This document shows, in pieces, positions 4,166-63,561 of a stretch of 64,000 nucleotides of DNA (positions are counted from its first letter, which is position 1; every line of letters begins with the position of its first letter). Position numbers and translations under genes: made by a program. The notes below the pieces were generated by a model. It ran no database searches. It saw only the letters and a list, made by a program, of their open reading frames with translations, and had not been told where the DNA came from. Source of the DNA: Macrostomum hystrix (lineage: Eukaryota; Animalia; Platyhelminthes); assembly GCA_950097015.1 (NCBI GenBank), contig CATNEN010000003.1:2232001-2296000 (forward strand). The letters run 5' to 3'.

Positions 4166-4177
4166 CCGCTGCCACCA
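4166..4177 (-). promoter_or_regulatory. Primer-binding site (TGGTGGCAGCGG, tRNA-Leu type)
   Basis: Minus strand reads ...CA-act-TGGTGGCAGCGGT directly upstream of gag. Confidence 0.75.
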
Positions 4178-8245: not shown

Positions 8246-8304
8246 GAGCTACGCTGGTATGTTGTTCTTATCAATTTTCTACAAAAGCAGCTAATATAAA
8301 AATT

Positions 8305-10005
8305 CAACTGGTGAACATTGTCAGCTGGGGAGTCATCATCAAATAGGGGATCATGGTAAACTGGGGGATTATTGTCAACTGGAGGATCATTGTCAACTGG
8401 AGGATCATTGTCAACTGGGGGATAATTGTCAACTGGGGAATCATGGTAAACTGGGGGATCATTGTCAACTGGAGGTTCATTATCATCTGGGGGATCACTG
8501 TAAACTGGGGGATCATTGTCAACTGTGGGATCATTGTCAACTGGGGGATCATTGTAAACTGGGGAATTATTGTCAACTGGGTGATCATCATCAACTGGGG
8601 GATCATTGTCAACTGGGGGAACTTTGTCAACTGGGGATCTTCATCAATGGGGAGTCATCATCAATTGGGGGATCATTGTCAACTGGGGGAACATTGTCAA
8701 CTGGGGATCTTCATCAATGGGGAGTCATCATCAACTGGGGGATCATTGTCAACTGGGTGATCATCATCAATTGGGGGATCATTGTCAACTGGGGAATCGT
8801 TGTCGACTGGTGGATCATTGTCAACTGGGGGATCATCATCAACTGGGGGATCATTGTCAACTGGGGATCATCATCAACTGGGGGATTATTGTCAACTGGG
8901 GAACATTGTCAACTGGGGGATCATTGTCAACTGGGGAATCATTGTCGACTGGGGGATCATTGTCAACTGGGGGATCATTATCAACTAGGGGAATCATTGT
9001 CAACTGGGGGATCATTGTCAACTGGGGATCATTGTCAACTGTGGGATCATTGTCAACTGGGGGATCATTGTCAACTGGGTGATCATCATCAACTGGGGGA
9101 TCATCATCAACTGGGGGATCATTGTCAACTGGGGAACATTGTCAACTGGGGGATCATTGTCAACTGTGGGATCATTGTCAACTGGGGGATCATTGTCAAC
9201 TGGGGGATCATTGTCAACTGGGGGATCATTGTCAACTGGGGGATCATTGTCAACTGGGGGATCATTGTAAACTGAAGAATTATTGTCAACTGGGTGATCA
9301 TCATCAACTGGGGGATCATTGTCAACTCGGGGAACATTGTCAACTGGAGATCTTCATCAATGGGGAGTCATCATCAACTGGGGGATCATTGTCAACTGGG
9401 TGATTATCATCAATTGGGGGATCATTGTCAACTGGGGAATCATTGTCGACTGGTGGATCATTGTCAACTGGGGGATCATTGTCAACTGGGGAATCATTGT
9501 CGACTGGGGGATCATTGTCAACTGGGGGATCATTATCAACTAGGGGAATCATTGTCAACTGGGGAATCATCATCAAATAGGGGATCATGTTAAACTGGGG
9601 GATCATTGTCAACTGGGGGATCATTGTCAACTGGGTGATCATTGTCGACTGGGGGATCATTGTCAACTGGGGAATCATTATCAACTAGGGGAATCATTGT
9701 CAACTGGGGGATCATTGTCAACTGGGGGATCATTGTCAACTGGGGGATCATCATCAACTGGGGGATCATTGTAAACTGGGGAATTATTGTCAACTGGGTG
9801 ATCATCATCAACTGGGGGATCATTGTCAACTGGGGGAACATTGTCAACTGGGGGATCATTGTTAACCGTGGGATCATTGTCAACTGGGGGATCATTGTCA
9901 ACTGGGGGATCATTGTCAACTGGGGGATCATTGTCAACTGGGGGATCATCATCAACTGGGAGATCATCATCAACGGGGGGATCATTGTCAACTGGGGGTT
10001 CATTG
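8305..10005. repeat. 18-bp minisatellite (attgtcaactgggggatc), about 95 copies
   Basis: Direct inspection; source of the spurious IIVNWG ORFs. Confidence 0.97.
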
Positions 10006-11752
10006 TAGCTTTAAACAGCTGTAAATTCAGCTGCTAAAAAGTATATACTAGACGAATTAAAAGTATTTCTGCTCCGCGAAGGGGGGCAAAACTTGCTAGT
10101 TGCTCCACTAAAACTAAAGCTTGCTCCACTAAAGTAAGCTTTGTGCTTGAGATGACATTTTGCTAAATTATCTAAAATTATACCGAAACAACGCTCGTAA
10201 TATCTTAAGCTAGCTATATATGTCTAAAGCCTATCTGTTTACTATAAACGTACCGACCGAAAACTGAAATCGAAAAAACTCGTATAATTAAAAATTATGT
10301 TTTCGACTAGTATATCAAACATTTATCGTCAACAACAATATGTTTAATCAGTATGCTTTAGTTCATTTAAAAAATTATTTTGTAGCCGCAACGATTTAAA
10401 TTTTATTTTTTCGAATTATCTTACTACGAAAGTATTTATTGGTTATATCAGCGCAACGCTCGCCCGCGACGCACACGAAAAAGACGCGAATATGACTTTA
10501 AAATATAAAGGGATTAACATACATTATAACAAAGATTATAACTAGATAAATACATTACTTAAATAAACCAGCGCACTATTTTGAGGGAAAGGGACAATAA
10601 TGTTACATTACCTCCTCTTCCGAAAAAACAATGTCCTCATTGTTACAGTAGAGTAAAGATTAGAAGCATACTACTATGAGTAGAAAGTTGGTACAGGTAA
10701 ACGGTAGAAAGGTAGAAAAAACTGGTATAAAGGAAATGTAGATGGTTTGCAGTTATTAATTTTTTTCTTTTTTTACTTGAATTAACACAAATATTGGAAG
10801 GGTGCTGACGTGCCGAGAGTACCACGAGAGAAAAAAATCAGGGGACTCAAGGTTGTCATGAAGCACACAAAACAAAACGTACTTTCAACTTGAGTACCTA
10901 AGAATATTACATTATCCCCTCCTTAGAAGAAATACAATGTCCTCATTGTTGGAAAATACTATAAAAAAAGACTACAGTAACACATACTAATAAAAAAGTA
11001 CAAGAAAAAAGAGATCTAGGAGAGGTACTCACAGACATTGCAAATCCCAACTTCTGCCAAATACATGTGTAATAGGTCTATTTTTCTGCATTATAGCTGG
11101 TGATGGTTTTCTTTTTATTTTCTCGCGCTACAAAATTTTATTACATATTTTATATACATATAGTATATTACATATTATAAATATTTTATATACTTTATAT
11201 AGTTTAGTAAATATGCGTTATTAAAACAAAGTTGATAAATGCTATATAAGCATGAAGTTTGTCGTGGTGATAATACAACCCGCCAGTGAGCCAGAAAAGG
11301 CAATATCTGAGTAAAAGGATCTATTTGAATAAAGCAAACGTGTTGTGTTAGTTATTGAGGAAACACATTTAGTGCGAAACCGAGGATTGAGGCTGTGACT
11401 CTCTGATCCTGGAGAAACGCCCAGCAGAGACTGGAGAATAAGAGACCAGTGCCTTAGAGGGATAAACCGCTCGTGCCAGTGCAGAAGCGCTACCTAGGAG
11501 AATCGCACAACGTAAGAGTTGTGGTGTTAAAACGGCCCTTTTCAGGGCCACCGAGTTAAAGACATACGGAGAACGTGAACAGTAGAGAAGGAGATAAAAG
11601 AATAGAAGAGGCCAAAAGATACGCTACCAAGAAAGAGAAAAAAGTAGAGTGAGAAGCCCTGTTACAACTTTGGTGGCAGCGGAAAGGATTAGAGAAACAG
11701 CCTCAATCGAGAATAGAGTAGATTATCAAGAAGAACGAAGAGTTCATAGAAA

Positions 11753-12064
11753 ATGTCGATTATTATGCTGATAATAGCGGTGCTGATGAATCAGCAGCCA
11801 GGTATCCCTCCACTATTTGGAAGTGGTGGAACACAGTCAATGTTCGGTAATCCGATAATGTCTGGAAGCCAGGAAGAAAAGAAAAAGCCTATGGGAAAAG
11901 GCATGATTTCGATGCAGAATAAGCAAGATATGGAGTACATCACAGAGAGGAATGTACATAAGTTTAGCGGATGCTTCTTCTGTACTAAACCAGGACCTGT
12001 GAGGCCAGATGGACATCAATGTCGAATCACCTTAAACTTCCTGAAGCCGAACATGCCGAAGTAA
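11753..12064 (+). CDS. Short ORF after the PBS, possible gag remnant
   Basis: ATG about 80 bp after the PBS; CFFCTKPG...HQC knuckle-like motif. Confidence 0.35.
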   Translation: MSIIMLIIAVLMNQQPGIPPLFGSGGTQSMFGNPIMSGSQEEKKKPMGKGMISMQNKQDMEYITERNVHKFSGCFFCTKPGPVRPDGHQCRITLNFLKPNMPK

Positions 12065-13748
12065 GATAGTAGAGGAGGCACGGTACACCAGAGAAGTGTA
12101 CTGAATGTGTAAATTCGTGTAAATATGTGCTGTCTATAGTCGTCACAGTTGTCACAAGTGCTAAGAAGTTCTGAAAAAGAAAACACAAAAATAGTGAGTC
12201 AAGGATTTAATAAATGGGCACACGGCCGTAGAAATTATGTGCTCCAATACCTACTCAGTAGAAAAAGGAGTAGTGTGTGAAGAAAATTTAGAAGTTATGG
12301 TAGTTTAAATAAAGGCATCCAATGTTATAAGAAAGAATCTGTCTATAGGAGAAAGTGTTATAAGTCGGGCATGTGAAATTAATTATTAAGAAATCTCTGA
12401 ACGAATTGTTAGTAGTTGGCTTGCTCCAATGAAGTACAGCAATTTTGAAGGGGAAGAGCAATGTAACGTCACAATTTAACGAAGAGTGTGAAGAAATGAG
12501 GAGTGATTTCTCTCTGAAAGAGTTATTAGTAGCTGACATGTTTCAGTGAATTAAGGTAACTCAGAAGGGGAGGTGAAGTTTTCGGAATGTTCCTGGATTG
12601 AAGTCCAGAAGCCCAGAGAGTAGTAGACTCTGGGAAAGTCATTGACAAGTTGTGAAGTCATGACTAAGTGATCAGTTCCAAAAGGCTGAGAAGAAGGCGC
12701 AGTGCTGATCTGAGGGATCAGATGTAGAGCCAGTGTTGTGGAATTTTGTAGAGGCACAAAGGTTGCCTGAAGTGGCCTACCTGAAGAAAGACACACTGTG
12801 GCCTGATGATCAGATGAGGACTGTGTTGTGATGTGAATAGGCATGATTGTGGCCTGAAGTAAGAAGTGAAGAGGCACAGGAGATTGCCTGAAGAGGTCTA
12901 TCTGAATAAGGGCGCTGTTATGGCCTGAAGTATATTTAAGAAGAGGCAAATGATGCCTAGAGAAATGAGAGGAGACTCGTGTGAAATTGGAGAAGGCACG
13001 TGGCCTAAAGATAATCAAATAAGAAATTATGTAAACAAAGTAATAGATTAGAGAAGGCAGATGAGTCAACATGAATAAATTAGGAAATTGGATATTGCCC
13101 GCATGTCAGTTAATTTAAGTGACAGATGGTCGATAAGTAAATATTAATGAGCACCTTCCTAGTTGTGAGAATTGATTAAAAAGAGTGAGGTGATGAAGAA
13201 GAATATGTGACAACTGTGCGACATATTATGTAAATAGTTATGTAAACACGCCTTAAACGTTGTGAAATTAGTATTAAATGTTGTCTTTGAATATTTCTGT
13301 TGTATAAACTGAAAGAAAATAAGTTATGCGTGCTACTGTGAGTAAACGTGGGAGCACACTTAAGCTCAATATCCTCGCCATTAGAAAGGGTGAGAGTGAT
13401 GACGTAACCACTTTCCCATAAGGATCAGTGCTAATTAGTTTCTAATTGCGGATTAAAAGCATTAAAAAGCGATTATCTCATGAAATAATGAAGCTAGAAA
13501 GGTGATTCAAAATCAGCAATAATCTACGGAAAGAGATCTTTAAAAAGACACCAACCTTGTTAAGAAAGGTTGAGAATTGCTCATAAAATCGTAAGCCACA
13601 AGATCAAGGCTAAAAATCAAGTGTCAAAAGTAAGAGGTGGGGCGCGAAAGACCTTTGAATAGGTCCAGTTTTTGGCCCCGGGGAGTATAAATAACGGATT
13701 AGTTGGACCCCTGGAGAGACATGTTGTGAACAAACAACGCCATCGAAA

Positions 13749-14693
13749 ATGAACAACGGCGAGGAAGAAAATCAGCATGAGCCGGACGAGATCGAGGCAT
13801 TCCTAAAGGCGATTCAGGAAGACTACGATTTTCTTGAAGATGAGAATATGCCTGCCGAGGCTCCCGAGAGGCAGCCCACAAGACCGAGACCGCCTTCCGG
13901 CGGCAACAGAAGCAGCAGTAGCGGCGGTGGCAGCAGCAGTGGCGGCGGCGGCGGCAGCAGCGGCGGCGACAGAGGCAGCAGTGGCGGCGGCGGCAATAGA
14001 GGCGGCAGCGACGGCGGCGGCGGCAGCAGCAGCAGCGGCGGCGACGGCAGCGGCAGCGGCAGTGGCAATGTCAGCGGAGGAAAAAGGGTGCGCCTAGACA
14101 TGGAAGCGCGACCTGTGCCCGGTAACACAGCCACAGCCGCCAAAAGCCGCAAACAGCTGCTATCCGAGCAAGCGGCTACGTTAGTAACGACAGCTGTGCG
14201 CGCCGACGGCTTGTCCTGCAGTCGGCAGTTATTGGCTCAGCCAGATCTGCGAAGGCAGCTGGCTAGTCGGCAATTCGTGTCAAGTGTGGAGCCGCCGACC
14301 CAGCAGCAGCCGCAGCCTCCGGCAGAAGCAGGTCCCACGGACTATCGGAACAACACTCGGGCGCTAATTCTTCAGCATGGTGTCCCCATTGAGCGGAGCA
14401 GACATGCTCTGGTGCAATACCTGCTGCGTATTGCCTTTCTGCGAACTGATGTGGCCTTGCCGCAGCGGGCCCAGGTGTGGCCGGCCATCAGAGTCCTACG
14501 CGAACGGATGTCGAGGACCAACTCCATGACAATTGTACGAGATGTCTGCGCCACCGTCAGGAGGGCCATTGCTGCGGATGGCCGGACCGCATTCCGGCAG
14601 CTTCTGGCCATCGAGGTTCGGTGGGTGAGCCAGCAGCTCGGCTGGCCTTTTTACCGGGAACTGCCGGAGCCGTGCGATTTTGACCAGGCCTAA
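13749..14693 (+). CDS. Unknown 314-aa cargo protein in the 3' (env-like) position of the non-autonomous LTR element
   Basis: Clean ATG-to-stop ORF, GC-rich in an AT-rich element; TATAAATA at 13686; acidic N-terminus, Gly/Ser linker, GKRVRL basic motif, complex C-terminal domain of about 170 aa. Confidence 0.75.
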   Translation: MNNGEEENQHEPDEIEAFLKAIQEDYDFLEDENMPAEAPERQPTRPRPPSGGNRSSSSGGGSSSGGGGGSSGGDRGSSGGGGNRGGSDGGGGSSSSGGDGSGSGSGNVSGGKRVRLDMEARPVPGNTATAAKSRKQLLSEQAATLVTTAVRADGLSCSRQLLAQPDLRRQLASRQFVSSVEPPTQQQPQPPAEAGPTDYRNNTRALILQHGVPIERSRHALVQYLLRIAFLRTDVALPQRAQVWPAIRVLRERMSRTNSMTIVRDVCATVRRAIAADGRTAFRQLLAIEVRWVSQQLGWPFYRELPEPCDFDQA

Positions 14694-16764
14694 TTGTCTA
14701 ATTATGGACTATAAATTTAGTACCTATTACATTTTATAATTTTTTTTGCGTTGGTGTCGTATTTTTAGGTGTCGTGTCTTGTATTAATGTTGTAATTTTT
14801 CTTTTTGTATTTCTGTAAAAAAATTCTCACTCATGTTTTTATTCCAATTTTTTAAAAAGAGAAGGCAGGTTGTAATAGGTCTATTTTTCTGCATTATAGC
14901 TGGTGATGGTTTTCTTTTTATTTTCTCGCGCTACAAAATTTTATTACATATTTTATATACATATAGTATATTACATATTATAAATATTTTATATACTTTA
15001 TATAGTTTAGTAAATATGCGTTATTAAAACAAAGTTGATAAATGCTATATAAGCATGAAGTTTGTCGTGGTGATAATACAACCCGCCAGTGAGCCAGAAA
15101 AGGCAATATCTGAGTAAAAGGATCTATTTGAATAAAGCAAACGTGTTGTGTTAGTTATTGAGGAAACACATTTAGTGCGAAACCGAGGATTGAGGCTGTG
15201 ACCCTCTGATCCTGGAGAAACGCCCAGCAGAGACTGGAGAATAAGAGACCAGTGCCTTAGAGGGATAAACCGCTCGTGCCAGTGCAGAAGCGCTACCTAG
15301 GAGAATCGCACAACGTAAGAGTTGTGGTGTTAAAACGGCCCTTTTCAGGGCCACCGAGTTAAAGACATACGGAGAACGTGAACAGTAGAGAAGGAGATAA
15401 AAGAATAGAAGAGGCCAAAAGATACGCTACCAAGAAAGAGAAAAAAGTAGAGTGAGAAGCCCTGTTACACATGTGATGATGTAAAGACGTTTTCACAAAG
15501 GAATGCTAACACCAGACACATAAAGGAGAGTTAACATGCACAATAAGCCTGGCCAATGGGTATCAGCATCACCCAAGGCCTCCCATGCACAACCAGCGCT
15601 GACACGAGGACAAGATTGTTTCAAACAGGAAACAGCCAAAAATGGGAACCTGCTGAACAAAACCACTGCGTGCAGTACTGCCATCGGCATAAACAATCGC
15701 CGGAACGAATCAATATTAGAAAGAAGCAATAGTAATGAAGACTTACAGTAAGAAATAAATAACTAAAACATTCAAAAATTAGTCCGCGTTAGTCCCCGTT
15801 ATTCATCTTAGCTTTGCAGCTGATCCGATTGCTTCGCTACTACAGATCTAACTTCGAGCTCCAAAGCTGATTGGCACGCACTTCATGAATTTCAGTCATA
15901 ATTGGTCAGAAGATCCAGCGGAGTCTCGTGGAATCCGCGTCCTGGCGTGGTCGCCAATGTAGCTGGAACGATTTAAATTATATTTTTTCGAATTATCTTA
16001 CTACGAAAGACTCGTATTTATTGCTTATATCAGCGCAACGCTCGCCCGCGACGCACACGAAAAAGACGTGAATATGACTTTAAAATATAAAGGGATTAAC
16101 ATACATTATAACAAAGATAATAACTAGATAAATACATTACTTAAATAAACCAGCGCACCATTTTGAGGGAAAGGGACAATAATGTTACAATTTAGTAAAC
16201 TAAGTTCTAAGTTCTCCCTCCCACACACCGTTCTCGCTAACTTAGTAAAATATCATGTTACTGAAAACCCACAAGCTTCTTAAGGCAGTACGTGTATTTC
16301 ATTAACCCTTCAAAGTCAAGAAAATCTAGCTACAAAGATCTATACTTTGTTCAAAATTTAATTTTTTTCAATTTTATTTAAAAATTTTCACTTGTGATGT
16401 TTACCGAATGATGAAATTCAATAATAAAAGCTCTATACCTATGCAATCAAATCTTATCATTGCTACGTGCCGTCAAAATAGCTTTCAACTGTTGACTCAA
16501 ATTACATTTTAACCTATAGCAAATTAAATTAGTTTCCACATAAAAAGCTTCGTGCAGTTGCTATAAATAGATGAGCTTCAACAATTGACTATAATTTCCT
16601 TAATGACTTTGACTTGTGAACAAATTAGTTTAATTTCTATCATAAAAGCATCGTGCAGTTACTATCATCAGGTGATTCGTTTTCGATTCGCTTCTATAAA
16701 TACAAGTTTCAAAATTTTGGTCTTTTCACGAGCTTTCTAATCACTACACCAGCTAGCAGCAAGA

Positions 16765-17686
16765 ATGTCTTACTACGCAGCTGAATCACTGCTAAAGTCT
16801 AACATGAGACCTATCTTCCACATTGGCGAGATCGAGTCGACAGTCAACGGTTCGTGTTTGTTTCGATCGGTGGGTTGGAAGTCAGGTCCAGAGGCAAAGG
16901 GCTGGCACCCGATCATCTTCCAGTCCGCCGGACCAGTTGAGCTACTTCGAGGCATCACCGAGCGAGCGGAATACGAGGCAGCTAGCAAGAATGACTCACG
17001 CGATGTCATCGGCATAACGTTTAGAAAGGAGTGTTGTGATCAGGATTTAGTCGACTGTCTTCGGTGAGTATAATTATGTGTTTTACATTTCCTCATAAAG
17101 CTTGTATTTGTCACTAGTAACCTACCTCATAGTTCTTATAACCAAATTGTAGAGTCTAAGCAACAAAACTTAGACACGAAATTAAATTATGCATTTAGAA
17201 TGGAACTAGAGTTTGTTCTCCCTACAACTAATATTTACCTTCAATTCAACCAGCACACAAGTGTACAGGTTATAATTTTGTAAATTGCTGCAGCTTTTTA
17301 TCTAGCGAATAATTTTTTCCTAAACTCAAGCAGCGTCTAACTTGGATTTTAATCCTCTCTTTTTATCCAGAGTTATAGAAAGAGGTATCGAAACTAAACT
17401 GTGTGAAATTGGCGATGGACGAACGTTAGTGCGACTAACGAAGTCATTGTCAGATGAAGTGGTGCTGAATAATAGGCAGCAGCAGTGGATCACAATCAAG
17501 GCAGCATACCCGTGCGCCACCTTCATGGTGAACGAAGCAAATCCTGACGGAGTCGAAGTTCCGCTGGCCAACTTCAAGGGTTTGAGCGGAAAATATCTAG
17601 TCTCGCTTCAAGGAGCGAGTCTGTTCTCTCCGAAAGGTAGCATCACGTGGAGGTTAACCTTGTGTGCGTTCGATAATTTTGATTAA
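16765..17686 (+). CDS. Two-exon gene (16765-17063 + 17371-17686, 204 aa), putative OB-fold ssDNA-binding protein
   Basis: Donor CG|GTGAGT, branch CTAAC at 17337, acceptor TTTTATCCAG|A; phases match (..DCLR-VIERGI..); TATAAATA at 16695. SSB function is inferred from the beta-rich pattern, C-terminal GSITWRL and position near PolB. Confidence 0.6.
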
Positions 17687-18062
17687 GGAGACCCGTCTGA
17701 CTCCCGATAACAGTATGTTCAGTGTAGTGCATCAGCATATCAAGACTGCGATTGGTGAGCACAGAAGCTCTTCTTCATCCAGAGCCGCTTCACCAAACCC
17801 AGCCAACAAGCAGAAAGCCCAAGTTCCCGCTCGAAGCCCATCACCAGCCAAGAAGCCTGCTGCGAAGAAGCGTTCCAAGCCGGTTACCAGCCCCGCAATC
17901 AAGACAAATAAGCGATCAAAGACGACTACTGACAAGATCGATTGGATTCACTCGCCACCAGCCAAGGCTTTGGTGAGTGCGCCGCAAGAAGGAAACGGAG
18001 TGGCGTCGAACTTAGACGACACAGACTCCGACTCTACTGATTCATTTTCTTCAGATGAGTAA
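17664..18062 (+). CDS. Lys/Ser/Pro-rich ORF with acidic tail; separate basic protein or frameshifted C-terminal tail of the upstream gene
   Basis: Overlaps the end of the upstream ORF; KKPAAKKRSK segment and terminal DDTDSDSTDSFSSDE. Confidence 0.45.
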   Translation: MRSIILIKETRLTPDNSMFSVVHQHIKTAIGEHRSSSSSRAASPNPANKQKAQVPARSPSPAKKPAAKKRSKPVTSPAIKTNKRSKTTTDKIDWIHSPPAKALVSAPQEGNGVASNLDDTDSDSTDSFSSDE

Positions 18063-18071
18063 ATCATTATT

Positions 18072-18797
18072 GTGACTCTTTGCAGAATAACTTCATTATT
18101 TGTATTTTTATTATGTTACCACCCATACGCTCGTATAGGCCTTAATTATTTCGCACGCCACTCGGTTATTCCAAATTTTTTATTAGCCGATAAAACTGTA
18201 AGCCCATTTTCACAAGTCCTTCCTTACTGTTTCCAGCGGCTTGTTCTCCTAATATTTAGCGCCAGTCTTCTAAATCCTAGGCAATGTGAGAATTTCGATT
18301 TGAGGCTAATCGAGTTAATTTTACAATCAAAGGGTTGTGCTTGCAAATTATTTCGAAACAGACCAACTATGCTAAAGACGTGCTTTTCCTATCTAACTGT
18401 TCAGTCTTATCCGAGTGGCAAAATTTCAATATTTGGTTGCTTGTCAAATTGGCAATTAATTTGTGCTTTACGCTTTATTAATGATAACCTTTACGCAATA
18501 GATTTCGACTCAATCAGACTTCAAACCAGTACCTATGTAGGTTTTATTGACGATTTTTATTGGCCAAATAACTGTTTTCAGCTGCTAAAATCAATGATCG
18601 GTCATCATTCAAACTATAAAATATCATACGATGATGAAAACTTTCCTCAAGCAGTTTCAATTCGATCAATTTCTAATCCTAAGCTTTTTTGTAACATATT
18701 TTTTTCAAAAAACTTTGTCATTATGGGTGTACAAGGAGAACAAGATTTGCAATTCGTGCTCAGTCTTCTTAAACACGCGCTGCAATCAATCTGTTAA
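18072..18797 (+). CDS. Divergent TATA-binding protein (TBP)-fold protein
   Basis: Two TBP-like repeats: FDLRLI...VQSYPSGKISIFGCLS resembles LDLKTI...ALIFSSGKMVCTGAKS, and IRLQTSTY...SYDDENFP...NIFFSKNFVIMG resembles FKIQNMVG...SYEPELFP...LIFVSGKVVLTG. True start uncertain. Confidence 0.7.
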   Translation: MTLCRITSLFVFLLCYHPYARIGLNYFARHSVIPNFLLADKTVSPFSQVLPYCFQRLVLLIFSASLLNPRQCENFDLRLIELILQSKGCACKLFRNRPTMLKTCFSYLTVQSYPSGKISIFGCLSNWQLICALRFINDNLYAIDFDSIRLQTSTYVGFIDDFYWPNNCFQLLKSMIGHHSNYKISYDDENFPQAVSIRSISNPKLFCNIFFSKNFVIMGVQGEQDLQFVLSLLKHALQSIC

Positions 18798-18985
18798 TCT
18801 GTTAATCAAATCGACCCTTTAAACCATCAATATTTCTTTCATTTAAAAACTAAGTACCTATTATCCTTCCTCTCGTTTTTTAAAAGACTTATATACCTAG
18901 TTTGTAAAGCAATTACACATTTCAATTTTTTCTATTCACTCATTAACCATTAACCTACTCATTTAATTACAGCCATAATGATCAA

Positions 18986-20925
18986 ATGCCTCGAGCAAGG
19001 TGCAATGTTTGCCAACGCGTTTTCAGCGGTCAGGCGGAACTGCATGCACACTCGCATGGCGAGTGCTTTGCGCCTGAAAACCTGCTCTCTGCACCCATTA
19101 ACCGTCTGACTAACAATCCTCCCAATGATTGGTCTGTTGTGCTACGCGAATCAAGCCACAAGGGACGTGTCAACTTTGTCGAATTCAGACCACAGCAACA
19201 ACAGCGGCTGCCTAGCGAACTGATTGCCAATCTTCGAGAACCGATATACAACCTCTTCGAAAGATTGGTTCAGCCGGTCTAGTGCTGCGAACCTGTGTCC
19301 ATCTGAAATTGAAGTTATCTCGTCCAAAGTCAGAAGATGGTGAGAGTATCGAAACAATTTCTGCCTACTTTAACACCAATATGGCGACAATAACATTTGA
19401 CGAGACGACAATGGCAAATAGTGACTTGACTCTATCACCAGACGCATTCAATGACTGGTTTTCGCGCGTAATCTCCACTCTAGTAACAAAAATTGACAAC
19501 TTCCAAACACGCGGTAGTAACTGGCAATTTGAGCACATTGAACAACTTGATCTAATGCTATGCATTTACCGCAAATCCAGAGCTCGATTAATCAATTCAA
19601 CCGAGCTTGGAGGTGGCGGAGGGGCCGGCGGGGGGCCCGCGCGGGCGCGGCGGCCTGATCCGAACGGACCGACCCGATCCGACCCGAAACGACAAGCCTT
19701 CAAGGTACCGATTTCTATTGGCCGAATGACTGGTGCAGTCTTGTACTTAAAGCCGCACAGAGCTAATCAGTTGGATTGTTTTCGTTGGGCTATTATCGCG
19801 AGTGTGTTTCATCCTTACACAACGAACCCGAGTAAAAAGTCGAGCTATGCGCAGTGGCAGGGAGAGTTCAACTTTGGCCGATTCGCAAATGGACCAGCTA
19901 GCCATTCCAAATCATCGTATAGAAAGTTTTGCCGCAAGAATCCTAAGCTTAGTCTCCGTGTCTTTGTCTGGAATCATGAAGAAAAGACTATTACTCTCTT
20001 CTTTTCACATCGAAGCAACAGTGAAGGTGATAGGTATTTTGCCAATTGCTTGTTTGTACCGCGTTACGGACAATTTGCGTTTGGTCATTACATGCCAGTC
20101 AAGAATTTGAATCGTTTAATGAGTACACGCAGCAAACAACGGAGGTTTTGTCCCGACTGCCTAGTTTCTTTTCCATGCATCACTTCTTGGGATTATATTT
20201 TAAATGTGCATTCTTGTGTAAATCATAATAATGAAAAGTCCACTACCATCGAAGAGTGGACTTCAGATGTTGTACCACAGATTCGCGAGACAAAGTATAA
20301 GCCAGTAGAAAGAATGCCACGAGAAGAGGATGCTCACGTCAAATTCAAGAGTTTTGAAGCTCAGCTACCGTCACTGTACGTCATGTATGCCGATATGGAG
20401 TGTCTTTGCGCGCCACCAGACAAGCATCAGGCGGTTAATGTGCTTGAGGTGCATGAACCGATTTGTTTAGCCTATCGATTAGTAACTTGTCCAGAACTGA
20501 AATTGACACCTCGCCTAAAGGCAGCTGTTGGCATGACCAGAGAGAAACCGTGTGAGGTGATTTACACACCACCAAATGGTGAGAATTGTGTTAGATAATT
20601 TTTGCGGCGACTTAAAACGATTGCTAGCGAAATTTGTCTACATGTACAAAGTGAATCCTACACTCCACTTTTGCGCAAGTATTTACATCTAAGCAAGTCC
20701 AAGGCATAGAATGCAGCGTGTCAATTGTGCAAGAAATCATTTAAAGAGGATGAAAAGAAGGTACTTGATCATTGTCACTTGACAGGTCTTCCACGTGGCG
20801 TGCTGTGTGTCTCTTGCAACAGGAAGTTGAGTCTTAGGCGCTATCGTCTCATTGTTTATTTTCATAACTTAGCCTCGTATGATGGCAAGTTTCTAGTGCG
20901 AGAAATTTATGAATTAGTCCCTTAG
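18986..20925 (+). pseudogene. Protein-primed family B DNA polymerase, N-terminal/exonuclease part, truncated
   Basis: N-terminal C2H2 finger, GSNW, DCFRWAI, HY..KNLNRL, ExoI YADMEC, EndoVII-type CxxC...DHCHLTG.PRG..C.SCN, ExoII FHNLASYD; one frameshift (about 19280), two in-frame stops; polymerase domain missing. Confidence 0.88.
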
Positions 20926-23029
20926 TCCCTAGGTCCCTAAGCAGCAGTGTTGGACACAAAGTGAAATTAAATTCTATTTGGATTCTTGTTTTTAATTTTA
21001 GATTTTTTGGCTTATTACTATAAGTAGTGAGTGTGGGCGTCACCACCCTATACGAGACTGGGTTGAGTCTATAACTTATACACAGACCACATAAGAGCCT
21101 GACGGTGTTTCTTGTTAGACTGGCCCCAGTGTGTTGCCTGTTAGACAGGGCTGGTTTCGAAGCGATATTGTTAGATATAGGTAGTATAATGCGAGTCCTT
21201 ATAGAATTTCATTTTGATAAAAAAGTCAGTTGCGTGCAAATTCTGTTACTGACAGTAGTCTGTCGTAGTTTTATGTTAGTCATATCGGAAGCGACCTTAC
21301 GAAAATCAGGAGTTTTATCGGAAAAAGTGAGCATTATTATAAAACAGAGTTCTTTAGCAAGGTTTTAAAGAAATTTTCTTGTTTTGTGCAACTCATTTCG
21401 GCAGCGATCCGATCGCTTCTGGTAAGACAGGCTAATGTTTTAAAATCTTACTTATCTAAATTTACTTCAATTTTCATAAGTTATCTAATCAGTTTTCGTT
21501 GTTAAAACGAATCCCCGAAGGACTGGGCGCGGATCAGTTTCGAGAAACTCTACCGCTGAATTTTAAAATATATTTGACCGTGTTAATTAAAAATTTACAA
21601 GTGATTCGATCTGGATAGTTTACGAATATTGAAAATAGAACAATAAAACAATAAAACAATAACTCAATATTTGGCAATATTTAGGCATGCATTGGGATAT
21701 AAAAAGGGAGAATATACAGGGGGAATCCCGCACAAAGAAGGGATCTAATAAAAAAGGGAAATCTAAAAGGCATGCGTGCAGGAATATTTGTGAGCGCAAT
21801 TAAAAGCTTTATGAATACTTGTTAAAGAAATATAGAAAATAACAGTAGTAAATTGAAACATAAAATGCGAATTTAAAAACATTTCTAGGCAATGCTGCAC
21901 ATTTGAAGTAGAAAAAATAAGCAAAACTAAAGACGAAGCATTTATTTGGGAATTAAAAACTCTTGTATATAAAAAGCTAGCAGTTCCTGAATAAAGAGCA
22001 CAAGTGACAATACTGCCATTAGTACTCATAGGCAATAAAAGACATTAAGTCAGTAGGAAAAGAGCGTAAAGAATGGAATAACAGACCAGCTGAGCACAGC
22101 TCACCAGCCCTCTTGAGCTCAGGCAGCTATTTAAATTTTATCTTAGTTTACTTTCAGGGCCATGGGTCTCAGAGACTGTTCAGCCCTGGATTGGGAGTGG
22201 GTTCTGCCTAGGGATGCCAACCGGTTTAAAAAAACGGTTTTTAGCAGGAAAACCGGTTCTAAAAAAACGTTTTTGTCCAGTTTTTTTGACGGCTTTGATT
22301 GGGTTTTTTATTTTAATTATGTCTCAGAGTCACAATTTTTGCACCTTGGAGAAAAAATAACTGGTAACAAAATTTTTCTAAATCGTTACTTTGTAACTTC
22401 ATAATCGTAATTCGTAGTTGTAGTTGTAGAGTCTGAATTCCTGAAAATAATATGAAAAACCTCGGAGTCCGCTGGACTCAGTAGTACTCAGTGTCAGCAT
22501 GGTAATTAAATAAAAATACATGTATAGAATTAGAGTTTATATAAGGCCTATTACGCATTTATATAAAGTAGAGTAGAGAGAATATAGTAATATACAGACA
22601 CAAAATAATATATATATTATATATATATATATGACAATATATATTTGAATTCTATTTTTTATGCAAAATAGAATAGTATATACTCGTAGTATATACTATA
22701 CATAAGTCTATCTATAGTCGTATAGAGTAATAGTAATGGGCCTCATAAAATACAGTTATATATTATATACATATACACTTGTCGAATGTAAGTTGTAGTT
22801 GTAAACTTGTAATTGTAGGCCAGTTAAGGTAAGTTTTAATGTAATTGTAGTCCAACTCAGTCTTTTCTTACTCTTAGTGGTCTTTAACTGTTTAGTATTA
22901 GTACTAGTCATATTAGCAGTATTAGTGGTACTGTATTAGTAAATTTAATAAAATGACTTGTATATTAATTGTATATCAATATAAAAATACTTGTATATTA
23001 AATTTATTTTTGTAATTTTGTCTCACAAA

Positions 23030-24989
23030 GATTCAAACCAAGGGCAGCTCAACATCGAGTATGCGAGCACATCTGAAAAATGTGCATGGAATCTCTATTG
23101 ATTCTCAGGCTAAAGCTTTGGCTGAAACGCCTGAAAACATTGCACTAGGTGGAGGAGCAGGAACTAATTCCACACCTGGAGCTCAGCAAAAAAGACCAGC
23201 TGCTGAGCCTTTGGCTTCTACCACAAATAAGCCTGCGTCAACATCAAGTTCTGGCAACCAGCTTCTTGGCTCAGCTGCTTTGCCAAAGCAACCAAAAATT
23301 GTCGAATTCATGAGCCGAAATGACTCGAAAGCAAGAAGACGACAATGCTGTTTTTGCTCGAATGGTTGCCAAGGATGGCCTCGCTTTCCAACTATTCATC
23401 ACATCGGAAGACATTCGAGCTGGCCTCCATGCTCGAGGTTTCAAGGTCCCAAAGTCTAGAGAGACAATTAAATCACGAGTCATGCAATTTGCTGATTTCA
23501 TTGAAGCACAAATCAAGGCTGACCTGGTGCAACGACGTGAATCTGGTGAGCGATTTGCTGTGACTCTTGATGAATGGACAGGAAGAAACAACAGACATTA
23601 TATGAACATAAATGTTCACCTTGAAGACCACACGAGCCATAATCTGGGTCTGTTGCGAGTTCAGGGATCCCCAAATGCTGAAGCTTGCTTGGAGTTGCTG
23701 ACTGAGCGTCTTAACAATCTAGGCTTGAACATTAAACGTGACATTGTTGCATGCACAACGGATGCAGCTGCCATGATGGTGAAGTTCGGGCGGCTAATCG
23801 AGTCTGAGCACCATCTTTGCTTCGCACATGGTGTTCATTTGGCAGTTTCGGATGTGTTGTATAGCCGTGCAACCACCTTGGACTCCGAAGCAACTTTGGG
23901 AGATTACTCCCAAACGAGCTGGATGAGCTGGATGCTATTGCTGCTGATGCGGAGGATGCCGATGCCGATCCAGCTACTCTGTGGGAATTCGAAACTGACG
24001 ATCTGGCTTCTGCAGTTGAGCTTAAACCAACTGTTCAAAATGTGGTCAAAAAAGTTCGGCAAGTTGTCAAGCTTTTTCGAAAATCACCTGTGCGCAATGA
24101 CACTCTCCAGGCTTTTGTCAAAGCGAGTCATGGCTCAGAGTTGAGTCTCCTGTTAGATGTTCGGACGCGATGGAACTCACTCCTGTACATGGTAGATCGG
24201 TTTCTAGAGATTGCAAAGCCTGTACAGAACGCAATGATCCAGTGTGATCTCGAATGGCCATTTGATCGTCAGGACATTCAACTCCTGAATGAGATCAGTC
24301 AGGCTCTAAAGCCTATTGAGCTTGTTGTGAAAACTCTCTGTCGGCGTGAATGCACTATTGTAACTGCAATTAGTGCAGTCGAATTCGCCACCATTACGCT
24401 CGCAAGCCAGAAAAGTGCCATTGCGGGTGAGCTCGCTGCTGCTCTAAAATCACGCGTTCAAGATCGTTGTGGATCGACTGTTACAGCAGCAAATTTTCTT
24501 TTCCGATATGGCAACAGCAACACTGACTCAAAGTGCGAGCTCAACTTCGTCAAGTACACTTTGATCGCATTGGCGGAAAAACTAGAGCTGTGCCCTCTCC
24601 CAGAATCTGAGGTGGAGCCAACCTCTGGTAGCAGCACTGACTTGGCCTCGGCGCTGCCTCCAGTGCAGACTCAGCAACTTCAACACGAGACACCATGTCC
24701 ACTGGCATCATCATCCTTGGAGGATCAACTTGAGGCATTTCTCAGAAGAAGTCCTCAACTGCAACTGCAAGTATGCTCAACTCTGGAGAGTCGCATTGGC
24801 CGTGAACTGGAGTTCCTTCGCATTGCGCATCAGCGGGGAACACTGCTGACACAGCTTTTTGATAAGCTTCTACTAATTCCGCCAACAAGTGTTAAAGCCG
24901 CTAGTGGCCTTTTTCTATCAAAGGTCAGGTCCCGGTTGTCAGACAGGACACTGTCCCGGCTGATTATGCTTCGTCACTATTTTTTTTAA
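23030..24989 (+). pseudogene. hAT transposase, frameshifted
   Basis: BED-finger tail (SSMRAHLKNVH), TLDEWT, TTDAA, CFAH, TRWNS, SRLSD; two frameshifts; the catalytic E segment after PPTSV is missing. Confidence 0.92.
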
Positions 24990-25533: not shown

Positions 25534-27940
25534 TATTTATGTTTGTTTATGCTAAAGGTTAAAGAGTTTTAAAGACTAGTTCCAGTCAGTTTGATCGCGC
25601 CGGTTGGATTGGAGTAGTATGGGTTAGCTTTTTTAAAATTTTCATTTTATAATTCTATTTTTTTGTTTGTTTATCCGCTTTCTGCGCATTTTATTTTCTC
25701 GCGTATTTTTGAATCTGCGCGGAACAAAGAGGCAAGCGTTAGACGGACCCGACCCCACTTCCCCCTCGTTACCCTGTGTAGAGCATCTTAGAATTAGAGC
25801 TGTAGAGTGATCCGAGAGCTCTGAGTTCTGAGTTCTGAGTTCTGAGTTCGTGAGCGAGAGTGAGTCTTTAGATCGTGAGAGTTAAGGTCCCCTTGAGTGT
25901 GAAGACTGTGAACTTTTACTTGGGTTGATATGTTCCCCAAGTAGACCTGTTTAATTCCTGACAGACTGTGTTTGTAAGTAACACAGGAGGAAGGAACTTT
26001 GTTCTTTTAGTTTAGGATATTAGGAACTTTGGGGATAGGATTATTTGTTCTGCAATTTAACTTGTCTTCGCTAATTCTGTTGCGCCCAAATTTTGGCTGC
26101 CATTATTTTACAATTTTATTTGTCATTAATAAATAAGTGAAAGTGAAGTTTATTTTCTGTTAAAATTAGTAATAAGTTTAGTGAATTAAATCTGAAGGCG
26201 ACAATTGTTGTTTTGTTAATTAAATTTGCTTCGTGGTGGCAGCACTACTAAGTCCATTAAACTTAAAATTAAACTTGAAATTAAATCTAAGTTGAACTTG
26301 AAGTATAAATCTAAATTGGGGCCTAATCTAAAACTATCTAAGTCTAAACCTAAAAACATCAAGGGTTCGCCGTTTCTAATCTAACCATCCCAGGGTACCG
26401 CCATTTCGAGACTGTGACCAGTTTGCCTTGGCCATAATCATCAAATTAATCAATCATTGCTACCAGTGCATCATTAAGATTAAAGTTATTATTCAGCAAA
26501 ATTAAGAGTTCGCGAATTAGTTCGAACTGATCCGAACTAAATCTCAATTTATATTAAGTTCACATTGGGTCTTTATTTTAGTTCGCATTTAGTCCGCATT
26601 GGCTACGGAACGATTCCGAAGAAAGTCCACGGAAAATTTGAATTGTCGCGATATTCAATTTCCGCGAAACCTAACTATAACAAATTTAAAATTAATAATT
26701 CCAAGAAATTTTATTATTATTAATCGGCACGCACACCTTTAACAAATTCACGATTGTATATAAGTTCCATCTTCTATGCTTATTTAGTGCTTTTTAAAAA
26801 CTTGGCACACAAACCGGTTTTTAAAGACCGGTTTTCTTATAAAAGGCAGTTTTCAAACCGGTTAACCGGTTCTCAAAAAGGGCCGGTTTTTGGCATGTCT
26901 AGTTCTGCCTGTTGATTTGTCCCCGCCTCAGGGCAGCCCACAGGACATTGAGGATGGGAACTCGGCCCGGAGCGCGAGGCAGCTCCGGCTCGATGTGGAA
27001 GCCGTGCAGGCGAGCTGCTCTCATCTTGAGCAGCCAGGCCACACCGAGCTGCTTGACTCTGGCTGAGAGCATTGGCATGCCGGCCAGTTTGTGAAGGTAT
27101 TCGGTGCTCAGGTAAGAAGGCACACCGTAGCAGATGCGCAGACCAAGGTTCTGGATCTTTTGCAGCTTGATCTGGTTGGTGACGCAGATCAGAGTCAAGA
27201 TTGGGGCGCCGTAGGTGAGAGAGCACTCTCACCATAGGCCCTGTACAGCATCCTGAGAGCGACGCTGCTCAGCTTGGTGATCTTGGCGATGCGGCACAGG
27301 GACATGACAATGGCCCTGCACGTGTTCGCCATGTTGTCGACGTGTTTGTTCAAGCAGAGATTGGCGTCAAGGAGGACACCTAGAAATTTCACTTCCTGAC
27401 AGTAGGGGACCTCCGTCTGTCCCAGCTGCAGTTTGGGTCGCAAGTCGGCGCGAGCTGTCGGCTTGTAGTTGAAGGCGATTGCCTTGCTCTTGTCGGCATT
27501 CTGATGCCTTGCTTGCCGCACCACTCCCATATTTGTCTGAGGTAGCTCTGGAGGCATATCCGCAGACCAGCAAAGGTGTCTGCGGAGGCCCAGATGGCCA
27601 TGTCGTCAGCAAACTGACTGCGTTTCACGTTTGGATTTTCAGAAATCGGCATTGTGCTGACGTACAGCAGGTACAGGAGAGGACTCAAGATGCCTCCTTG
27701 AGGTACTCCAGCTAGGATTCTGATCAACTCACTGAGCGAGTTGTTGACTCGCACCTGGATGTACCTGTTCCTAAGGTAGTCGGACAGGATGCGTTGCAGC
27801 ATTGAAGGCAAGCCAGCGTTGAGCATGCGGCTCCTAAGCATGTCGTGCCAGGCAGAGTCAGTATCTGTATTTATACAGACTCAGGGTCTGTATTTAGGGA
27901 AGTATCTAGTCAGAGCCAACCAGTCTTTCAGTTTTGAGAT

Positions 27941-29890
27941 TTAATTAGACCTTTTGTTTGACAGTTTGTATAGCCTAGTGAAGAGAGGGGTGTTTGTGCC
28001 AATGGGAAGGCTAATGTCGTGCGGTACTGTATCTAGACCATGTATTTTGTTTAATTTTCCCTTTAGGAACCAGGATGAAGCCAGGTTTTCAAGTCTGGTC
28101 TTCACAGGCTCCATGTTCGAGATCTTATGTAAGTATTTTGTGCAACATTGTTTTGGTGCCCCGTGGCACATTCTGAGTATGTAGGCTCTATAGATTCTGA
28201 TTAGAGATTTATTTGTAGCATTTGTTAAGTGTGCTACTCTGTATAGTTGTAGCAGGCCGGTTTCACATTGTTTGATTCGGTTGTTTATTTGGGCATTGAA
28301 GTTAAGGTTGGTATCCAGTTGGATGCCAAGGAACTTAACATTGGAATGATAGGGAATAATTGTCTTGTCTAGAGTGATGGGAGGGGGTTGGCCGAAGCCG
28401 TGGTGAGGAGTCTTGAATGCTATAGCTTTGCTTTTGTGTGGGTTGACTTTAATGCCGCATTTTTTCAACCATTTGTGAAAAATTTGGATATTATCTTGTA
28501 GGAGTTTGGCTGCCAGATGAGCCTTTCCAGACTGGCTCCATATGGCAGTATTATCTGCATACTGGCTGGCTCTGACTCTAATGTATTTGGGTCTGGGCAT
28601 GGTAGCTACAAAGATGAGAAATAGGACAGGGCTAAGGACGCCACCTTGTGGGACGCCTGCGTCTGGGGTGAATTCATCACTGAATTCGTTGTTTACTCTT
28701 ACTGAGATTTATCTATTTTCGAGATAGTTGGAAAGGACCCTAGCAAAGGGAGTGGGGAGTCTGATTTTGTGAAGGCGATACCTCAGGGCATCATGCCATA
28801 CCTTGTCAAAGGCGCCTTCAATGTCAAAGAAGACACCTATAGTGGATCTATTTCTGTTTCGGGCATCATAGATGTCGTGGGCTAGTCTGGCGAGATTATC
28901 GTAGGCACAGTGCTTTTCGCGATTTGCGCATTGGTTGTATCCTAGTATGTTGTTTTCTTCTAGAAATTTGCAGAGTCTTTTCTTGAGAATTTTTTCAAAC
29001 AGCTTACCTAAGCAAGAGGTAAGACTGATTGGTCTATAGCTGAGTGGGTCATGTTTGGGTTTGTCGGGTTTGGGTAGCATCGTTAAACGAGCTTTTTTCC
29101 ATATGGTGGGGAAGTAACCAAGGGAGAGGCAGGTGTCTAGGATTTTGGTGAGAATTGTTATTGCAGTAGGGCTCAAGCCCCGTTTGAGCACTATGTTAGG
29201 GATGTTGTCTAGACCCTGGGCTCCTCCTGACCTAAGGTGGGCGAGTTCCCAGGTGACATCAGCGATTTGTATGGGTGCGGTGAGATAATTGGAGTCGTTG
29301 ATGTTGGAGATTTCAAGATGGTTTAGAGGTTTGAAGTTTGGATGGTTTGTGATATGTTTGGCGATCTTAGTTCTGCGTCTCTTGTTTTGACTGGGTTCGG
29401 GTTTCATTTTGTCTGATAGGGCTTCAGCCAACAAGTTGGCTTTGTCCCTATCAGTGATGGCAGTTTTGGGTTTTGGTGCCCATGATAATTCTTATCTCTT
29501 TCCAGAAAGAGCAGAACGTATATACAATAAAACATAATGATACAACTAAAACACTGTCACATGTATATAAGCGAGACGTTTAGAAGGTCTAGCTTCGGAT
29601 CGCTGGTCTGGACTTTGAAAGAAATTTTTTCATGGTTGACATTGTCGTACGAGACTTTAACTTCCGATAGTTTGATATACTCTCTGTAGGCCACGAGTAG
29701 ACCTCGACTACAGTGTGGCATATCCAACCGAATGGTGGAGTAGCCAGGGAAGAAGATAATATTTGAGCTGGTGAGGACCGTCTCCGAGAAGAGGGCTATA
29801 TCAATGGATTGACTTCTCAGGAAGTCATTGAGTTCTTAGATTTTGTTAAGGATACTGTTGCAATTTAAGTGGAGAATGGTAAGTTCTTCT
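27941..29890 (-). pseudogene. LINE ORF2 (APE endonuclease + RT), disrupted and internally deleted
   Basis: LTILHLNCNSI...IDIALFSET (APE, about 29750-29890), SYRPISLTSCLGKLFE, FFDIEGAFDKVWH, GVPQGGVLSP, QYADN (catalytic D lost), VKFLG. Confidence 0.92.
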
Positions 29891-29999
29891 ACCTTAAAAT
29901 TGTTATTGTTATTACTCTCGCCTTTCTAGTTTGTTGTAGGAGTGGGAGGGGGTCTTTAGTTTTATTTCTGGCTTTGCTAAGGTATCTGTTCTAAAGAAT

Positions 30000-31889: not shown

Positions 31890-31925
<36 letters not shown>

Positions 31926-31961
31926 CTGGTGCTGGGTCTTCTTATTGTTGTTTTGCTGCAT
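30000..31961 (-). pseudogene. LINE ORF1: poly-Q N-terminus, AlkB dioxygenase domain, then RRM-like ORF1 body
   Basis: After a frameshift near 31140 the AlkB C-terminus (QHALPRDPSIKDLRINLTFR) reads without a stop into the 30516-30863 ORF (..HSFIINNVSRDID..); C-terminal YASVV motif. Confidence 0.8.
31078..31465 (-). pseudogene. ALKBH2/ALKBH3-type 2OG-Fe(II) dioxygenase domain
   Basis: EPRKIFWYG.PYTYS, FNYCLVNFYENGNESIGYHADDE (HxD), IASISIGAPREF, HGSLL, distal His (31134-31136), RINLTFR (31080-31100). Confidence 0.93.
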
Positions 31962-32267
31962 GTCTATTCTATTCTATACTAATTTGTAAATAATAAATAA
32001 AAATATAACTGTATTAAACTGTATATACTACTTAAAACTTAAAACTGCAAAGAATTGCCTTAAAACTTTATTTATTTGCTAAATGCTAGATGTCGCGTTG
32101 GTAGAGCAGAGAGTGAAGAATGATGCAGGATACAGGTGAACAAAGGAAAAGGTATTCGAGTAAGAATGGAGAAAGAAGAGAGGGGTCCAAGCACAGGCGA
32201 ATGGGTTGACTAACGCAGTGGAGGTACGCGTGAGAAAGCATAGTCCACAGACAGGGGGGCACGGACA

Positions 32268-63525: not shown

Positions 63526-63561
63526 GTAAGCGGCTTTTGATAAAACAGGTGTCGACTGAAC

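Follow-up and report, generated by a model that had tools for sequence, protein, structure and literature searches.

A 4.7-kb segment of the Macrostomum hystrix genome carries a divergent gene of the TBP family between a putative ssDNA-binding protein (SSB) gene and the gene of a family B DNA polymerase that uses a protein primer (pPolB). Positions refer to the window, the whole 64,000-nucleotide stretch of contig CATNEN010000003.1 that was analysed, in which the segment occupies 16190..20913 on the + strand. Contig depth and divergent contigs identify it as an internal fragment of a dead copy of a Polinton/Maverick-type element. We consider it probable that the intact element is a Polinton/Maverick whose TBP serves as its own promoter-recognition factor.

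The TBP-family coding exon (18237..18797, +), which follows a candidate splice acceptor at 18236, is predicted to encode two repeats in about 186 aa. Both motifs by which the sequence-only reading had recognised two TBP repeats in 18072-18797 lie in this frame (18063-18797), and profile analysis bears that recognition out: the stretch 18072-18794 matched PF00352 with 25.9 bits (E 9e-6; cut-off 22.9 bits). Four relatives (P0002-P0005) were found, three of them above the same cut-off and the fourth at 22.8; family members range from 143 to 257 aa. When the family profile, A1, was searched against the PDB, 34 of 34 rows were TBP or TBP-containing chains, and cellular and archaeal TBPs were aligned at positions 9-169, that is, over both repeats, with a best E of 1.1e-6. 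Identity to the four relatives is 39-43%, compared with 12-18% to cellular/archaeal TBP structures (Foldseek rows), in agreement with the earlier claim that the protein is too divergent to be host TBP/TRF. Taken together, these comparisons support the window gene as a genuine member of the TBP family that is distant from cellular TBP. The exon has a GC content of 34%, against 45-51% in its neighbours, and this AT-richness may reflect a separate origin.

Fold searches of both the TBP and the gene 1 product were uninformative, because their single-sequence folds were poor. The TBP model (pLDDT 50.7) had only repeat 2 folded and resembled TBP-like/KA1 folds at Z 9 or less; it gave weak matches to the TBPs of Yasminevirus, Moumouvirus and Pithovirus (E 0.018-0.14) and no Foldseek match at E 0.001, so that of the two checks proposed beforehand, against PF00352 and by fold, the first was positive and the second uninformative. 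A word-index protein search with the TBP exon was empty, TBP patterns retrieved no relative from viral or metagenome contig sets, and no TBP relative was found in M. lignano, although a polymerase relative was. The best A1 match among 3428 frames, L026:6149-6706 (E 0.01), was rejected as a TBP: it drew no Pfam match and looks by eye like a maturation protease.

According to the part of PMC12529657 available to us, TBP contacts DNA through four Phe, the Pro and two Asn, and E188 contacts TFIIB. Within this TBP family, the equivalents of yeast F190 and F207 are Phe and that of F116 is Tyr in all five members, the F99 position is Phe/Tyr in the four rows that cover it (4/4, gapped alignment), and P191 is retained in four of the five. 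Aromatic residues at all four intercalating positions, together with a mostly kept Pro, are as would be expected for a DNA-bending protein. The equivalent of E188 is retained throughout (5/5), and that of E186 reads D, N, N, N, S. At N159, the base-contacting Asn of repeat 2, every member has Thr (5/5), a replacement that points to an altered site preference; the repeat 1 Asn falls outside the aligned stretch.

The word TATAAATA, in which the sequence-only reading had seen two promoters, is indeed present at 16562 and 16695. Contigs of other copies (X1, X3) differ from the window at 16565, within the 16562 box, and therefore only the 16695 box (16695..16702, +), 70 nt upstream of the first ATG, is a shared candidate promoter. 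The word by itself is weak evidence, because the window has 11 matches where 2.7 would be expected. Two imperfect 55-nt direct repeats (16520-16574 and 16621-16675, 75% alike; together 16520..16675, +) enclose the 16562 box and have a common CGTGCAGTT-CTAT core, which occurs twice in the window, both times there; they form a candidate upstream regulatory unit. The further proposal that the TBP directs expression from the TATAAATA boxes was not upheld, one box being unshared and the repeat 2 Asn being replaced in the whole family.

In the reading that we favour, host RNA polymerase II would transcribe the early block, with the TATAAATA box at 16695 as the probable promoter. As pPolB displaces a strand, the gene 1 protein would cover it. 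With its four aromatic residues, the small TBP would contact the minor groove at a TATA-like word other than the standard one, would recruit host TFIIB via the conserved acidic stirrup, and would turn on other element genes, probably virion genes, which are absent from the window. A possible but clearly less likely role is that of a decoy or host modulator, which titrates host TFIIB or other partners, or shifts host transcription, instead of reading element promoters. In its favour, the Glu that contacts TFIIB is invariant, whereas an Asn that contacts DNA is exchanged and Tyr stands in for one Phe; in the window, moreover, the three genes are not preceded by a shared box. Against it, aromatic residues persist at the four intercalating positions and most members retain the Pro that follows F190, as for a protein that still bends DNA.

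The polymerase (18986..20913, +) is, by its sequence, a Polinton-type pPolB. It represents the 5' half of the gene and is 65% identical over 441 aa to P0001, a Macrostomum lignano protein with DNA_pol_B_2, Endonuclease_7 and all Exo/Pol motifs. In order, it comprises a C2H2-like finger, a TP-like region, a vOTU-like Cys/His pair (near 19778 and 20086), Exo I (YADME, near 20386), an EndoVII/HNH finger (Endonuclease_7, E 8.7e-11, about 20716-20829) and Exo II (FHNLASYD, about 20860). The EndoVII insert between Exo I and Exo II is thus where it had been placed from the sequence, but only a broken N-terminal half of the pPolB is present: the frame lies in four pieces, with a break near 19260 and stops at 20596 and 20707, and homology stops at 20913, after Exo II and ahead of any polymerase motif. 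The TP-vOTU-Exo-palm order is accordingly seen in two parts, the N-terminal half in the window and the polymerase motifs in P0001. P0001 shares 26-33% identity with 21 Polinton-like loci of IMG/VR, and among its relatives there an rve integrase and an A32 ATPase each occur at 14 of 20 loci. An EndoVII-like finger is found in 11 of 20 IMG/VR pPolB relatives; counted among these, the insert is an ordinary, common feature of the polymerase class. A TBP was present in none of the 20 related IMG/VR pPolB loci and in none of six whole records, and lineage-specific polymerase patterns found no relative in viral or metagenome contig sets. In a polymerase tree made by a quick method from 21 rows, without L004, L029 and the window fragment, P0001 forms a long, unplaced branch.

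Several integrated copies of the TBP/pPolB element are present, and the copy in the window is dead, being decayed and truncated. Depth in run X1 was 285-804 over 16190..20913 and 68-71 in unique flank contigs; as a rough guide, contig depth puts the element copies at ~4-6x flank depth, variant and deletion copies included. Upstream of 16189 and past 20913, contigs from other copies continue with sequence that does not match the window, and one contig spans the 20913 junction with 0 differences at a depth of 67.8. Overlapping non-window contigs (16981-17742, 17540-17830, 17810-18678, 18200-18931, 18852-19016 and 18947-19558) chain through the SSB-like gene, the TBP and the polymerase, and the gene order therefore recurs in other copies, a recurrence that the earlier reading had suggested looking for. 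Differences between the window and other contigs fall at third codon positions in 4/10 cases for the TBP, 1/8 for exon 2 of gene 1 and 4/8 for its tail (among 40 of 166 rows listed), a spread that is no selection test and fits drift in a dead copy. In runs X5, X6 and X7 the element is barely covered, which has no bearing on its expression.

An LTR element (10381..16189, +; 232-bp TG..CA repeats, flanked on each side by ATTT), within which another LTR element is nested (about 11069-15469), is inserted in the upstream region of the Polinton; it is not a Polinton part and splits the Polinton. Using tblastn with 3428 frames from 29 loci, we found no capsid, ATPase, protease or integrase of the element in the window. 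The sole exception in this search was a gypsy integrase at 36.5 kb. The frames 5071-5397 and 6053-6437 have no credible Pfam match, and no long inverted repeat occurs in the window, where the element ends are missing or interrupted. It is by its polymerase alone that the element is placed among Polintons, because capsid, ATPase, protease, integrase and TIRs are all absent from the window. The endogenised Polinton-like virus of the earlier reading is thus supported as a repeated element with a Polinton-type pPolB, whereas no virion gene in the window speaks for a capsid-encoding virus.

Gene 1 is a candidate for a T7-like/NCLDV-type ssDNA-binding protein. Its exon 1 (16765..17063, +), an ORF with a GTGAGT donor at 17064, is followed by a predicted GT..AG intron of 307 nt (17064..17370, +; 32% GC, against 48-51% in the exons) and by exon 2 (17371..18062, +), in which a beta-rich part is succeeded by a linker rich in Ser and basic residues and by an acidic tail. 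Since one X3 contig omits exactly the predicted 17064..17370 stretch, as none in X1, X2 or X7 does, 16765-17063 forms a single two-exon gene with the sequence from 17371 onward, and the spliced joint suggests that some family copy was transcribed and processed. The four co-oriented, tightly packed ORFs described earlier therefore do share one orientation but amount to three genes rather than four intact ORFs. The frame 17658-18062, past a frame break near 17660 in exon 2, is likely the tail of gene 1, a membership that we infer, and has 8 D/E among its final 25 aa.

The proposed SSB identity was not confirmed by profile or fold searches. Look-alikes of exon 2 in the Atlas, with weak scores of 0.90-0.91, come from giant viruses: they are clusters in which 12% of members carry DUF5871, or 10% DUF2738, and we take DUF2738 to be the T7 gp2.5-like SSB family. 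Exon 1 had no family match in profile searches; exon 2 folded alone (pLDDT 44.6, best Z 3.4) had no Foldseek match at E 0.001 from this poor single-sequence fold, and its word-index protein search, made with longer lengths only, was empty. Sequence matches of exon 2 in the PDB were artificial alphaRep proteins and were discarded, and an OTU assignment for exon 1 (an Atlas lead, 13% of one cluster) was set aside as lacking Pfam support. The T7 gp2.5-like SSBs of Nucleocytoviricota and gamadviruses, as presented in the accessible part of PMC11253617, are likewise beta-rich, with an acidic tail such as gene 1 probably has, and lie beside the replicase; unlike them, gene 1 is interrupted by an intron, includes a basic linker of some length and gave no significant profile or fold match. 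For gene 1 as an SSB there are leads, and the identity is unproven.

It is unlikely, in our judgement, that the element is some other pPolB element, either a derivative without a capsid or a larger endogenous virus in which an SSB and a TBP of giant-virus type came to be combined with a Polinton polymerase. The lack of virion, integrase and TIR sequence in the window would fit this, as would the Nucleocytoviricota clusters resembling exon 2, the long branch of P0001, the presence of spliced genes and the promiscuous module exchange described for MELD viruses in the portion of Starrett 2021 (PMC8502044) that we could consult. Against it, the pPolB has the TP-vOTU-Exo order given for polintons in the available part of PMC11161782, and giant-virus TBPs match by fold only weakly, with E 0.018 at best. 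Moreover, the IMG/VR locus L026, with ATPase, capsid-like and integrase-like frames, has a frame that looks SSB-like by eye directly upstream of its pPolB; this frame gave no significant BLAST match to exon 2.

The start of the TBP raises a quite unlikely alternative, namely that alternative splicing yields it fused to the ssDNA-binding protein, which would explain why it lacks a start of its own. Position 18072 is GTG, which is no eukaryotic start, and the first ATG does not come before 18369 (none in 18063-18368), while homology to the relatives begins at frame residue 64-74. The linker contains a canonical GTGAGT donor (17973) whose phase, 0, is also that of the acceptor at 18236, so that one gene could give the SSB with its acidic tail when unspliced or SSB-linker-TBP when spliced. 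TBP homology begins just past this acceptor, and a Gln precedes the matching residue in two relatives too. However, the 17973-18236 joint was seen in no contig, an X3 contig is unspliced through 17810-18678, and two TBP relatives have an in-frame upstream Met. Such a fusion, if true, would couple the recognition of promoters to templates that are replicating and single-stranded, and would give a small DNA virus of animals that lacks an RNA polymerase a late-gene switch in one protein.

That the TBP frame is a decayed host TBP/TRF copy adjoining the polymerase remnant by chance is very improbable: an ATG start is not evident and the GC content is unlike that of the neighbours, but the four relatives, which have open frames and the motifs specific to this family, are far closer to the frame than cellular TBPs are, and the gene order repeats in other element copies.

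Polintons/Mavericks and adintoviruses, as described in the available parts of PMC8502044 and PMC11161782, likewise have a pPolB with a TP-like region, vOTU Cys/His and exonuclease, and occur in several copies. Compared with them, the window fragment adds a TBP and a spliced SSB-like gene, and core virion genes, integrase and TIRs are absent from it. An inserted endonuclease domain, not necessarily the same insertion, is also known from the pPolB2 of Polintons from nematodes and oomycetes, which contains an HNH domain (Jeong et al., bioRxiv 2023.08.22.554363). A TBP label among elements with adintovirus-like PolB was already printed in a 2021 figure legend (Starrett et al., PMC8502044); its supplement has no match for TBP or TATA, and the text sections available to us hold no analysis or mechanism. 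Beyond this legend, we found no paper that analyses a Polinton TBP, and two 2026 preprints do not mention TBP at all; bioRxiv supplements might list such genes.

KSHV ORF24, a vTBP of beta/gamma-herpesviruses, is likewise divergent, keeps the intercalating aromatics and belongs to a virus without its own RNA polymerase; as described in the accessible sections of PMC12529657, it is large and multidomain (residues numbered to 696) and lacks the acidic TFIIB contacts. In contrast, the window TBP is a bare core that keeps the E188 equivalent. The herpesvirus vTBPs are a functional model for a late-gene switch, and direct descent is not implied. The TBP-like factors of Nucleocytoviricota and mirusviruses are also divergent and virus-encoded, and these viruses encode their own RNA polymerase, whereas the polymerase of the window element is protein-primed, and we saw no RNA polymerase in it.

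New here are a divergent TBP family that stands apart, predictions for single residues and evidence of splicing, together with a mechanism that we infer. Little is known of how Polintons/Mavericks, lacking an RNA polymerase, control the timing of their gene expression, and the literature consulted here is silent on it. With its aromatics and one TFIIB contact kept and a base-reading residue changed, the element TBP is a testable candidate for an element-specific promoter code, which would parallel that of the herpesvirus vTBPs.

The stretch 16190..20913 on the forward strand is, judging from its anatomy, very probably the dead remnant of a Polinton-type element that exists in several copies and carries a genuine, divergent TBP. 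In sequencing run X1, depth was 285-804 across 16267-20942 versus 68-71 on contigs of the unique flanks, which corresponds to roughly 4-6 copies of the element, contig depth being a rough guide. At three of its breaks the window copy departs from the contigs of other copies, which also extend past 20913, and the window's own 20913 junction is covered by a contig with no differences. The window copy is therefore genuinely truncated and decayed. Contigs unlike the window overlap as a chain leading from exon 1 of the putative SSB gene (gene 1) through the TBP to the polymerase, so the gene order recurs. The recurrence of SSB-TBP-PolB that the sequence-only reading had proposed to look for was thus seen in other copies, but neither similarity to virion, ATPase or Polinton integrase proteins nor a long inverted repeat was found within the window. 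Several deletion joints occur in contigs at about single-copy depth. A joint between 17004 and 20254, present in X1 and X6 contigs, suggests a deleted derivative of the element without the TBP.

An LTR element with 232-bp repeats, flanked on both sides by ATTT, occupies 10381-16189. Nested in it is a second LTR element (~11069-15469), which is recent because its 599-bp repeats are 99.8% alike; it encodes an orphan Gly/Ser-rich ORF of 314 aa (13749-14693) downstream of TATAAATA at 13686, with no clear pol gene. Loose contig ends look by eye like window sequence immediately left of 10381 and around 5770-5800, which makes it probable that the element extends leftward there, through minisatellite arrays. 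Arrays of 23-nt and 18-nt units lie back to back at 7050-10010, possibly inside the left part of the element. An ORF of 104 aa (5086-5397) that starts 65 nt downstream of a TATAAG word (region 5021-5397) has no Pfam match and may also belong to this left side, since a loose end from run X3 resembles DNA near 5770-5800.

The window as a whole consists of repeat-rich animal DNA, in which remnants of gypsy, LINE and hAT elements as well as host exons were labeled from reading frames. A decayed gypsy element stands at the window start (25-4217), and another at 35172-41372 has long open frames for gag (587 aa) and pol (1478 aa). A frameshifted hAT-type transposase (DUF659, E 5e-4) lies at 23016-24989. 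Pieces of a LINE-type reverse transcriptase are spread over 27195-31973, and the frame 31120-31617, which by its motif we take to resemble an AlkB/2OG-Fe(II) oxygenase, is possibly retroelement cargo. The exons at 54621-63605, separated by minisatellite-filled introns, presumably resemble a TRPC channel gene.

The cassette had been read as four separate ORFs, a count that we revise. For gene 1, splice sites are predicted at 17064 (donor) and 17370 (acceptor), and one X3 contig of depth 9.6, whose shorter side covers 105 letters, omits precisely this intron with its GT..AG ends. The joint was not found in contigs of X1, which is deep, X2 or X7. It stems either from spliced RNA or from a DNA copy that lacks the intron, the nature of run X3 being a guess, and past splicing is required under either origin. 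The GC content is 32% in the intron versus 48-51% in the exons. The frame of exon 2 (17371..18062) breaks near 17660, after which the frame 17658-18062 encodes first a basic linker, then an acidic end. We infer that exon 1 (16765..17063), exon 2 and this frame form one gene, and the first two ORFs therefore merge. Its look-alikes in the Atlas are giant-virus clusters with DUF5871 or DUF2738 (0.90-0.91, low recognition value), families that we assume to be connected with SSBs. The structure model is beta-rich, the tail is acidic and the replicase adjoins; searches for an SSB identity in Pfam, PHROGs, PDB and fold collections gave no match. On this weak evidence we lean slightly toward an SSB. 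DUF2738/5871 genes are reported from Polinton-like viruses (bioRxiv 2022.07.28.501842) and T7-like SSBs in giant viruses and gamadviruses (PMC11253617).

The TATAAATA word occurs 11 times in the window versus 2.7 expected. The boxes at 16562 and 16695, suggested earlier as possible targets of the element TBP, are both present, the latter 70 nt upstream of the first ATG; the former sits within one of two 55-nt repeats and differs at 16565 in other copies. Host TBP is the simplest reader of a canonical box that precedes an early replication gene, and the box is therefore not taken as the target of the element's protein. No TATAAATA box was found ahead of the TBP or polymerase in the window copy, and TTATATA is present at 18889. 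We consider it reasonably probable that the element TBP would have acted much like a viral TBP (vTBP, as in herpesviruses) in minimal form for the element's own genes; that it served instead as a decoy seems unlikely.

The polymerase (18986-20913) is broken near 19260, at 20596 and at 20707, which leaves four pieces. The part 19381-20913, with two stops read as X, shares 65% identity across 441 aa with P0001, the best match, a 1084-aa partial protein of Macrostomum lignano that has DNA_pol_B_2 and Endonuclease_7 as well as every catalytic motif. The window polymerase carries a vOTU-like Cys and His, Exo I, an EndoVII finger and Exo II, and then ends, which together with the match to P0001 upholds the claim of a pPolB with an EndoVII insert between Exo I and Exo II. 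The polinton domain order is given as TP-vOTU-Exo-palm in PMC11161782. A search of IMG/VR with P0001 returned 22 loci, of which 20 were counted, leaving out L029 (match to EndoVII only) and L004 (same element as L015). The finger was found by a strict pattern in 11 of the 20, so the insert is ordinary. An rve integrase and an A32 ATPase were each present in 14/20. In a quick tree, P0001 came out as a long branch of uncertain placement. That the source is another kind of pPolB element is rather improbable. No TBP turned up among 189 ORFs of the 20 pPolB loci, in 3428 six-frame segments taken from 29 loci, or in the six of 20 records that were searched whole (controls positive in 4 archaea), so the gene does not belong to the core of this polymerase class. 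Literature on a Polinton-type TBP yielded nothing beyond a 2021 figure legend (PMC8502044), in which a TBP label appears among elements whose PolB is adintovirus-like; a search for TBP in its supplement was blank. Among the IMG/VR loci, the Polinton-like contig L026 carries three genes for collagen-repeat fibres and, immediately upstream of pPolB, a frame (68-889) that is T7-type-SSB-like by eye; L020 and L023 contain Sputnik-type virophage capsid domains.

Both TBP repeat motifs quoted earlier are contained in the frame 18063-18797. The claimed start at 18072 is a GTG codon and was given up: homology begins at frame residue 64-74, the first Met comes later, at residue 103, and a strong phase-0 acceptor is predicted at 18236, immediately before the homology onset. 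Against PF00352, 18072-18794 scored 25.9 bits (cut-off 22.9). Among 1.84 billion representatives, 18237-18794 had four matches, every one at E 1e-19 or better. These are unnamed singletons on Logan/ENA contigs of 1.7-4.2 kb, with identities of 39-43% to the window protein and of 49-65% among themselves, and PF00352 is the only family that each matches, one of them at 22.8 bits, just under the cut-off. A joint profile of the family matched 34 PDB sequences, 34/34 being TBP or TBP-containing, with both repeats covered (best E 1.1e-6); the single-sequence structure model folded repeat 2 alone, and fold searches gave no Foldseek match at E 0.001. The score above the cut-off and the exclusively TBP matches substantiate the claim of a TBP, and a host pseudogene is a highly improbable origin of the frame.

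We mapped the residues of the family (the window protein and four relatives) onto yeast TBP. The positions of F190 and F207 are Phe in 5/5 rows, that of F116 is Tyr in 5/5, and at that of F99 all four rows covering it have Phe or Tyr. P191 is retained in 4/5 and E188 in 5/5, E186 is variable, and the N159 position is Thr in 5/5. DNA bending, base reading and TFIIB contacts are assigned to the mapped positions in PMC12529657. On the basis of these contact residues, the element TBP would still bend DNA and may retain TFIIB binding, and the DNA word it prefers is likely altered.
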